Virus record (IMG/VR): IMGVR_UViG_2713896902_000001
DNA from: a virus
Taxonomy: Duplodnaviria > Heunggongvirae > Uroviricota > Caudoviricetes
DNA length: 31,164 nt
Strand: one strand, 5' to 3'
Both the position numbers and the translations under genes were made by a program. Under the pieces are notes generated by a model, which made no database searches, had not been told where the DNA came from, and was given only the letters and a program-made list of their open reading frames with translations. Below are positions 27,986 through 28,684 of this stretch, one piece after another (within the stretch, counting starts at the first letter, position 1; each line of letters opens with the position of its first letter).

Positions 27986-28684
27986 ATGATTAAAAATCTT
28001 CTTTTAATATTATCCCTGTCATTATTGGCTGGATGCGTACAAAAACCGTTAGTAACGGTCAATGCTTTATCCTCCGGGCAATCTGTCGGTAAGAAGTTCT
28101 TGATCATCCCCGCAAGCCAAGAACTTTGGAACACCAAACAGATTGAATACACTCAAATAGCTACGGTAGTAGCCGCCAGTTTATCAAGCCAAGGATATAC
28201 ACAAGTTAAAGATGAAAAATTGGCTGACCAAGTAATTCTCTTGAACTTTTTGAGAAGCGGGGCCATTTCAAATACTCGTAATGTAACCATCCCAATATAC
28301 GGGCAAACTGGTGTGAGCTCAGCAACAACGTACGGAAACTCGAACACCACGTTCAATAGTTATGGTGGTGGCTACGGTACAGCTAATACCACTGGAACGG
28401 CAACAACAGTTTATACGCCTACTTATGGAATTACTGGCGCGTATAACACAACTGTGACGGACACGTTCTACGGCGCAGGGGTGATACTCCAGTCGTTTGA
28501 TGCCAAGGCTTATCTCAATAATAGGCAGATTAATATGTTATGGAAAGTTGGTAGCTCAGTCGTCTCGCAACAGTCTGATGGAATTGCTGATTACAAAGGG
28601 TTGGCGAGAATAGCCGCTAGCTATGCCGGGAAAAATACAGAAGGTGATATAACTTTTAATGTTGACCCTAAAGCACCAAATTAA
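27986..28684 (+). CDS. lipoprotein (232 aa) with Gly/Thr/Tyr-rich central region; AT-rich moron
   Basis: Signal peptide plus lipobox LLAGC; GAGGTGAG-like RBS; own upstream AT-rich promoter region and downstream hairpin; visibly lower GC than neighbours. Confidence 0.75.
   Translation: MIKNLLLILSLSLLAGCVQKPLVTVNALSSGQSVGKKFLIIPASQELWNTKQIEYTQIATVVAASLSSQGYTQVKDEKLADQVILLNFLRSGAISNTRNVTIPIYGQTGVSSATTYGNSNTTFNSYGGGYGTANTTGTATTVYTPTYGITGAYNTTVTDTFYGAGVILQSFDAKAYLNNRQINMLWKVGSSVVSQQSDGIADYKGLARIAASYAGKNTEGDITFNVDPKAPN

Follow-up and report, generated by a model that had tools for sequence, protein, structure and literature searches.

The lipoprotein gene and its product

IMG/VR virus record IMGVR_UViG_2713896902_000001, a 31,164-nucleotide stretch of DNA referred to hereafter as the window, carries a lipoprotein gene directly downstream of a set of phage ejection genes. 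The open reading frame (ORF) occupies positions 27986–28684 on the forward strand and has 232 codons. Its 232-amino-acid product is 100% identical to WP_000594596.1 (CP139039, positions 3569631–3570329), annotated as ‘hypothetical protein’, of EcCIMP1, a phage-inducible chromosomal island (PICI) of Escherichia coli MP1; by gene count, this protein is probably EcCIMP1_021. Comparison with an 88% relative gave a dN/dS ratio of ~0.04, indicating strong purifying selection. The ORF is confirmed as a real gene. Its dN was 0.071 as compared with 0.105–0.156 for the neighbouring ejection genes. When the E. coli island is set beside a Serratia prophage, the lipoprotein has 62% identity, as against 26% for gp20, 44% for gp16 and 56% for gp7. 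The gene is preceded by a Shine–Dalgarno sequence, AGGTGA (27973–27978, forward strand), 7 nt 5′ of the ATG, of which GGTGA(G/A) is kept in homologous loci.

The N-terminus of the protein reads MIKNLLLILSLSLLAGC, with a single Lys in the n-region followed by a hydrophobic core. The signal peptide comprises residues 1–16 and, with the lipobox, maps to 27986–28036 on the forward strand. The lipobox is the canonical L-A-G-C17, with MIKNLLLILSLSLLAG followed by C17 satisfying the pattern [LVI][ASTVI][GAS]C; the lipobox that had been proposed from the bare sequence is thus present. The residue at +2 is Val, followed by Gln at +3. Asp at +2 would retain a lipoprotein in the inner membrane of Enterobacteria, whereas Val, under the enterobacterial +2 rule, predicts sorting to the outer membrane. 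A lipobox was found in 147 of 184 family members and Asp at +2 in just one. The product is therefore predicted to be processed by the Sec, Lgt and Lsp pathway and sorted by Lol to the outer membrane.

The gene resides in an EcCIMP1-type island

Judged from its sequence, the element that bears the gene is an EcCIMP1-type PICI. It extends from 11568 to ~30600, is collinear with EcCIMP1 of E. coli MP1 at 97–99% identity and contains genes for an integrase, an AntA antirepressor, Ash and a zinc-ribbon/Toprim/DUF927 primase, an ejection module, the lipoprotein gene, a variable cargo slot and a gene for a PerC-like regulator. A P22-like prophage was considered and rejected, given the collinearity with EcCIMP1 and the lack of head, tail and lysis genes in the element. 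The PICI has no tailspike gene either, and the lipoprotein gene lies 3′ of gene 16.

The genes upstream, earlier described as ejection-like, proved to be a true P22-type set, all on the forward strand. They encode a DUF2824/gp14-like protein (22667–23128), a gp7-like protein (23122–23799; phrog_598), a gp20-like Inj_translocase (23799–25118; PF16928) and a 908-amino-acid fusion of an SLT lytic transglycosylase (PF01464, residues 17–119) with a P22 gp16-like part (phrog_770). The gene for the fusion (25109–27835), referred to here as SLT-gp16, is the constant upstream neighbour of the lipoprotein gene.

Candidate transcription signals flank the lipoprotein gene

The original prediction, a model's reading of the DNA letters and their ORFs, held the gene to be AT-rich and autonomous, with its own promoter and terminator hairpin. 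The GC content is 38% in the 150 nt spacer and 42.3% in the ORF, as against 49.5% in the gp16 gene. The contrast is mild, because third-position GC is alike in the lipoprotein ORF and the gp16 gene (0.40 versus 0.41), so that the description as AT-rich stands in a weakened form.

A generic sigma-70 consensus scan of the upstream region gave nothing above chance. Alignment of the spacers from eight loci in four genera (E. coli, other Enterobacteriaceae, Pluralibacter and two Serratia P22-like prophages) nevertheless revealed a conserved element, TT[A/G]CAT-N16-TGaTAAATT, resembling a −35 and an extended −10 and lying ~30 nt 5′ of the ATG. In the window the −35-like part is at 27928–27933 and the extended −10 at 27947–27955, giving a candidate forward-strand promoter at 27928–27955 that reads TTACAT, a 16 nt spacer and TGaTAATTT. 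This comparative footprint supports a dedicated extended −10 promoter as a candidate.

Two further observations concern this region. In Enterobacteriaceae islands (L063–L066, positions 10001–10819), the public 272-amino-acid annotation of the homologue (P0002 and P0003) begins 40 codons too early; the extension crosses the conserved promoter-like element and lacks a signal peptide, and the true lipoprotein start is an internal ATG. Just past the gene 16 stop, at 27862–27873, lies a 12 nt element, GCCA(A/T)GGA(C/T/G)GGC, which in most relatives is the perfect palindrome GCCATGGATGGC. Ten of its 12 positions are identical across the eight loci, including the Serratia P22-like prophages with their otherwise much shorter spacer, and it could be an operator or processing site.

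Downstream of the gene, a GC hairpin (GCCCGG-TACG-CCGGGC, 28692–28707, 6 bp) begins 8 nt past the stop codon. The 66 nt segment that holds it, together with a second hairpin, has a minimum free energy of −16.4 kcal/mol (z −3.4). In related islands the conserved hairpin is directly followed by a run of six to eight T residues. The window copy lacks the T-run, since the homology ends immediately beyond the hairpin; the next U-run is at 28736–28740. On this comparison the hairpin is the stem of an intrinsic terminator, canonical in the relatives; of the terminator originally proposed, the hairpin is conserved but its T-run has been lost in the window. Because of the promoter footprint and the terminator hairpin, the lipoprotein unit looks autonomous in P22-type contexts, where the gene has the look of a small accessory transcription unit.

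A family related to DUF4136 with a duplicated motif

The protein fell below threshold for both of the Pfam families with which it showed any similarity, DUF4136 (PF13590; 14.2 bits versus a cut-off of 32.8, E = 0.062) and TraT (PF05818; 12.9 bits versus a cut-off of 31). PHROGs and NCBIfam gave no match, and PADLOC-DB 2.0 none at E ≤ 0.1. Searches of Protein Data Bank (PDB) sequences returned noise only, whether the query was the single sequence or a profile, and a search of the BFVD viral fold collection gave no significant match. Literature searches on DUF4136 function and on the protein accession yielded nothing useful. An indexed search recovered 37 homologues, and a profile search of 1.84 billion cluster representatives gave 3,840 matches at E ≤ 1e-3. 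As remote homologues carry PF13590, we regard the family as a DUF4136 relative. The kinship holds through intermediates and a common fold, though the direct Pfam score falls short.

Invariant or near-invariant positions in the family alignment are P103, G106, Q107, T108, G109, T115, T141, P145, Y147, G148 and G151. They make up two copies of the motif Px[YWF]GxTG, at residues 103–109 and 145–151. The first copy (PIYGQTG, 28292–28312, forward strand) contains P103, G106, Q107, T108 and G109, each invariant or nearly so; the second reads PTYGITG (28418–28438, forward strand). Across the family the tip that separates the copies differs in length, with a motif spacing of 28–44 residues. By their register, the copies should pair antiparallel about a tip at G127.

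An AlphaFold2 model built from the family alignment (pLDDT 86) consists of an alpha/beta core and one very long beta-hairpin, the strands of which are residues 82–124 and 132–172. This agrees with the earlier proposal that the Gly/Thr/Tyr-rich central region is beta-rich. The protruding part of the hairpin corresponds to a Thr/Gly/Tyr/Asn-rich segment, residues 91–163 (28256–28474, forward strand); its 73 positions include 20 Thr, 12 Gly, eight Tyr, seven Asn and six Ser, and just two charged residues. Tyr, Ile and Val are enriched on one face of the hairpin and Thr and Ser on the opposite one, and aliphatic residues are too scarce to form a clear membrane belt.

The modelled core is of the LptE/PelC/TraT/CsgG lipoprotein type. 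The top Foldseek match for the model was 4l8n, and the hairpin was weakly paired with the stems of the lysenin, aerolysin, CDTb and anthrax PA pores. Alignment to a TraT profile with hhalign gave 88% probability, over the N-terminal 86 columns only and with the signal peptide included. The TraT profile was built from close relatives (the matches listed were all at least 79% identical), and for this reason the comparison gained little.

The gene is an accessory of ejection modules

Among 5,426 complete E. coli genomes, 76 carry the lipoprotein gene and 76 this SLT-gp16 allele, in one copy each. In every E. coli locus inspected the gene is directly 3′ of SLT-gp16. Carriers include gut commensal and pathogenic strains, for example NC101 and MP1. 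In E. coli the gene is not independently mobile, its genome count being equal to that of the SLT-gp16 allele.

The block DUF2824-gp7-gp20-SLT/gp16-lipoprotein also occurs in islands of other Enterobacteriaceae and of Pluralibacter that have different primases and insertion sites. Two Serratia species carry the same block in genuine P22-like prophages, where the tailspike gene comes next to the right. Homologues of 34–40% identity lie in T7-like and phrog_684-type podovirus prophages, directly after the gene for the last internal virion protein and before the tailspike gene. Here the gap to the preceding late gene is 62 nt in one locus (L019) and 11 nt in two others (L015 and L017), and in a fourth (L004) the coding sequences overlap by 1 nt; the junction TAGGTGAATAATG is conserved in two of these loci. 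In a lambdoid prophage of Rouxiella (L007), a 46% homologue sits among the tail-tip genes, between K and I/J. In that prophage a second, unrelated lipoprotein gene (10708–11106), the product of which starts MKKLLIAVLALGLAGC, follows the homologue directly in tandem, still between K and I/J. More distant homologues were found in a Vibrio island with integrase and reverse transcriptase genes and in a metagenomic satellite-like island. The enterobacterial clade (at least 34% identity) is phage- or satellite-borne in every context examined, and in all of its podovirus-type contexts examined the gene comes straight after the last gene for an ejection or internal virion protein.

In the comparison of related elements that had been proposed at the outset, some have the gene and others lack it. 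No copy of the gene was detected in 50,697 phage records by megablast and tblastn. In the isolated P22-like phage Dewey, SLT-gp16 is followed directly by the tailspike gene; phage Huey likewise has SLT-gp16 and no lipoprotein gene. The island of strain TW10598, a related island at the same site with other ejection alleles, also lacks the gene. The gene is thus accessory, since none of the phage records has it and SLT-gp16 abuts the tailspike gene in Dewey. The arrangement in Dewey also led us to reject an obligate partnership with SLT-gp16.

Far relatives were located in 38 species-representative genomes belonging to many phyla, with a sparse and patchy distribution. No conserved partner gene emerged when 620 neighbouring ORFs were clustered all-versus-all and the 140 nearest neighbours were scanned against Pfam. 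Homology to a conserved housekeeping lipoprotein, which would have spoken against the original prediction, was found only in a weak sense: the distant relatives are DUF4136-type lipoproteins from many phyla, yet the distribution of the family is thin and patchy and conserved neighbours are lacking.

A candidate superinfection exclusion protein

The temperate, P22-like podovirus Kapi1 induces the PICI EcCIMP1 and transduces it (Pick, Stadel, Raivio, ISME J 2025; PMC11773190). In Kapi1 lysogens, EcCIMP1 raises superinfection immunity by a mechanism that the authors left unexplained; PADLOC and DefenseFinder detect no known defence system in the island, and the lipoprotein is never mentioned in their paper (PMC11773190). 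Because of this reported immunity, interference with an incoming phage at the level of the envelope, that is, superinfection exclusion, is the best-supported function for the lipoprotein. We propose it tentatively, as a reading that has somewhat less than an even chance of being correct. The lipoprotein would then be a candidate determinant of the immunity that EcCIMP1 adds to Kapi1 lysogens.

Three further lines of evidence point the same way. The likeness to the placement of P22 exclusion genes, put forward originally, holds: the gene occupies the slot of sieA, between gene 16 and the tailspike gene 9 (PMC10461980), and the fact that this slot was reached independently in several lineages supports a role in exclusion. 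The predicted structural relation to TraT, together with precedents for lipoproteins in exclusion, supports it by analogy. Lipoprotein exclusion genes embedded in phage structural clusters are among these precedents (PMC11893012). Finally, no other recognisable defence gene was found in the island.

In the proposed mechanism, the mature lipoprotein would have an alpha/beta core of the LptE/PelC/TraT/CsgG/DUF4136 type, from which a polar Thr/Gly/Tyr beta-hairpin protrudes. Protomers would assemble into a ring, in which the hairpins may form a common beta-barrel. We infer assembly into a ring because a lone hairpin of ~40 residues per strand is implausible, because the motif is duplicated and because the relatives TraT, CsgG and PelC form rings. 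The block would act on penetration of the outer membrane or periplasm by the ejection machinery, with a logic like that of TraT surface exclusion. P22-like and other podovirus prophages and EcCIMP1-type satellites carry the gene at the junction between the ejection genes and the tailspike gene.

Several points weigh against exclusion. In non-lysogens, EcCIMP1 does not lower infection by Kapi1 (PMC11773190). This rules out that helper entry is simply blocked constitutively, and any exclusion effect must be conditional, additive or aimed at other phages. The near-invariance of the hairpin motif across phyla is easier to reconcile with a generic structural or ligand-binding role than with receptor-specific masking, and the hairpin is not clearly amphipathic, which leaves its insertion in the membrane uncertain. 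The overlap and the 11 nt gap suggest that the T7-like and phrog_684-type homologues are co-expressed late. Distant relatives, present in many phyla, are mostly without mobile-element hallmarks or a conserved neighbour. The possibility that they are generally borne on mobile elements was rejected, a recombinase being near just two of the 38 loci.

The lipoprotein could instead serve the host in a manner unrelated to phage, as a lysogenic-conversion or fitness factor like TraT, Bor or Iss that gives resistance to complement, membrane-attacking proteins or envelope stress. We consider this unlikely. The core fold is TraT-like and a weak TraT sequence signal is present, but the helical membrane hairpin that defines TraT is absent. 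TraT itself gives serum resistance, and TraT homologues are also found outside conjugation contexts (PMC12658005; PMC11733297). A host-directed role would likewise fit the gut commensal and pathogenic carriers (NC101 and MP1), the chromosomal location of distant relatives in many phyla and the presence in the island of another host-directed accessory gene, that for the PerC-like regulator. It fits poorly with the tight placement that the gene repeatedly shows within the penetration modules of several podovirus lineages, and deletion of EcCIMP1 left growth unchanged in laboratory or gut-mimicking media (PMC11773190).

Quite improbable, in our estimation, is a late function in the service of the phage or satellite, in which the periplasm-facing lipoprotein would bind or neutralise the SLT- or endolysin-type domain of ejection proteins, or would mask receptors on the debris of lysed cells and so spare progeny from being wasted, as proposed for T5 Llp. 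A virion peptidoglycan hydrolase domain is encoded upstream in the P22-type contexts (SLT-gp16), in the T7-like ones (an internal virion protein with an endolysin domain) and in the lambdoid one (gpK, NlpC/P60), although none was found in the phrog_684 protein upstream in L004 and L019. This association is weakly informative, since virtually all podoviruses carry virion hydrolases, and the presence of SLT-gp16 in Dewey and Huey, which lack the lipoprotein, shows that the partnership is not obligate. The 1 nt coding overlap in L004 and the 11 nt gap in L015 and L017 would suit such a function, as opposed to the separate promoter footprint and terminator of the P22-type copies. The ultra-conserved hairpin motif could serve as a ligand- or enzyme-binding loop, but the protein does not resemble any known inhibitor of lysozyme or transglycosylase.

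A generic DUF4136-type envelope protein, for example one that binds polysaccharide or lipopolysaccharide or has a structural role in the outer membrane, that hitch-hiked at a recombination-prone module junction and has no role in conflict would suit the 3,840 cluster representatives in many phyla and heterogeneous, mostly non-mobile contexts, the core fold common to oligosaccharide-binding lipoproteins and the standing of the 16/9 junction as a known mosaic boundary, but is similarly improbable given the confinement of the enterobacterial clade to phages and satellites, the better conservation of the lipoprotein than of its neighbours and its independent capture by at least four phage lineages.

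If superinfection exclusion is the function, it would be the first for a DUF4136-related family of ~3,800 sequence clusters, and an envelope-level exclusion protein structurally related to TraT would be added to those described. It would also mean that satellites import exclusion genes along with ejection modules from helper-type phages, and that the slot after the last ejection gene, occupied in three podovirus lineages, is a guide to more exclusion genes. For the published question of how EcCIMP1 raises immunity, one specific, unannotated gene is put forward here as a candidate. A bolder version of superinfection exclusion, which we put forward as speculation with little chance of holding in full, is that the family is a phylum-spanning class of outer-membrane lipoproteins in which each protomer contributes one motif-clamped hairpin to a ring barrel. 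Podoviruses and satellites would have captured it repeatedly as generic ‘armour’ that keeps the ejection machinery of rival phages from getting through the outer membrane. It would thereby correspond to TraT, with a beta-hairpin in place of the helical one, and would be the effector still missing from the account of EcCIMP1-mediated superinfection immunity.

Other features of the island and of the window

The cargo region between the lipoprotein gene and the PerC-family gene (28786–30112) contains three small ORFs on the reverse strand, at 28927–29223, 29233–29454 and 29534–29989, one of which has a weak holin/SLATT-like signal. In related islands this slot holds Abi-family genes, an ImmA/IrrE gene with a helix–turn–helix gene, SocA_Panacea or alpA_1, and it looks like a hotspot for defence and accessory genes. 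From 28786 onward, the PerC-proximal end of the island is common to 556 E. coli genomes. The PerC-family gene (30249–30536) corresponds to EcCIMP1_025 but is diverged from it, with only ~91% nucleotide identity over a 219 nt alignment that covers the gene start; the effect of EcCIMP1_025 on LEE1 expression in Citrobacter rodentium was found to be repression and not activation (PMC11773190). Elsewhere in the island, a DUF6387 gene (13109–13990) lies within a 1.3 kb stretch (12912–14194) that has no counterpart at that position in EcCIMP1 of MP1.

The island supplies its own P22-type ejection proteins (gp14, gp7, gp20 and the SLT-gp16 fusion), yet has no capsid, tail or lysis genes. The EcCIMP1 ejection proteins have been called possible packaging proteins, and their supply by the satellite itself was left unexplained (PMC11773190). 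A tblastn comparison of the island SLT-gp16 with the phage records gave 25 matches, with Kapi1 not among them; whether the collection holds Kapi1 was not checked.

Directly upstream of the PICI and in tandem with it, positions 1–11500 of the window contain a second, separate element. Its genes include those for a resolvase (609–1148, reverse strand), a protein like major capsid protein E (6155–7183), a Dit-like tail protein (9353–10066) and a DUF6538-type integrase (10147–11481, reverse strand), as well as a 614-amino-acid ORF. It could represent either the remnant of a prophage or a satellite that encodes a capsid.

Comparison with known systems

The lipoprotein invites comparison with TraT of F-like plasmids, which acts in surface exclusion and complement resistance (PF05818; PDB 9e2v, 9fs5 and 9fsm). 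Both are lipoproteins borne on mobile elements, with a beta-hairpin extending from the sheet and a weak profile similarity in the N-terminal half. Homologues of each are scattered across many phyla, and mobile elements have co-opted them. An exclusion-type role has been reported for TraT and is proposed here for the lipoprotein. For TraT, protection against some phages has been reported, and the protein has been suggested to make the outer membrane harder to penetrate (PMC12658005). TraT forms a homodecameric ring. Its anchor, an amphipathic hairpin of two Gly/Ala-rich helices (alpha3/alpha4) that crosses the outer membrane, is missing from the lipoprotein model. The two diverge after the TraT strand YYWIQANV, which is aligned with VILLNF in the lipoprotein; from that point TraT has its helical hairpin and the lipoprotein a beta-hairpin of ~80 residues with the Px[YWF]GxTG duplication.

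With SieA of P22 the likeness is one of position, both being encoded by accessory units placed between ejection gene 16 and the tailspike gene, an arrangement seen in the Serratia prophages. SieA is expressed from the prophage and acts on gp16 and gp20 of incoming P22-like phages; it is an inner-membrane protein of three to four helices with a cytoplasmic FnRYPnEAnnFNK motif (PMC10461980). The lipoprotein, in contrast, has no transmembrane helices, lacks the motif and is unrelated in sequence.

Comparable as well are Llp of T5, Cor of phi80, N15 and T1, and Lpp of mEpimmI, which are likewise phage-encoded outer-membrane lipoproteins that block superinfection and whose genes lie in or beside the host-recognition or structural module. 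These proteins are small and each mask a specific porin or transporter (FhuA, OmpA or LamB), whereas the mature lipoprotein has ~215 residues and a conserved hairpin that probably oligomerises; it has no Pfam or PHROG match and no homology to them.

As regards fold, the comparison extends to the DUF4136 lipoproteins (PF13590; BT2437, PDB 4f54) and to BDI_1242 (PDB 4l8n), with the difference that BT2437 lacks the long hairpin. The ring-forming outer-membrane lipoproteins CsgG, PelC and FlgH have dedicated secretion or flagellar partners encoded nearby, whereas the lipoprotein gene has no conserved partner, and the amphipathicity of the hairpin is unconvincing for a lipid-facing barrel of the CsgG type. 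Exclusion lipoproteins on mobile elements are thus known already from TraT, Llp and Cor; the candidate described here would differ from them in belonging to a different, uncharacterised family, in having a different architecture and in being borne by a satellite.

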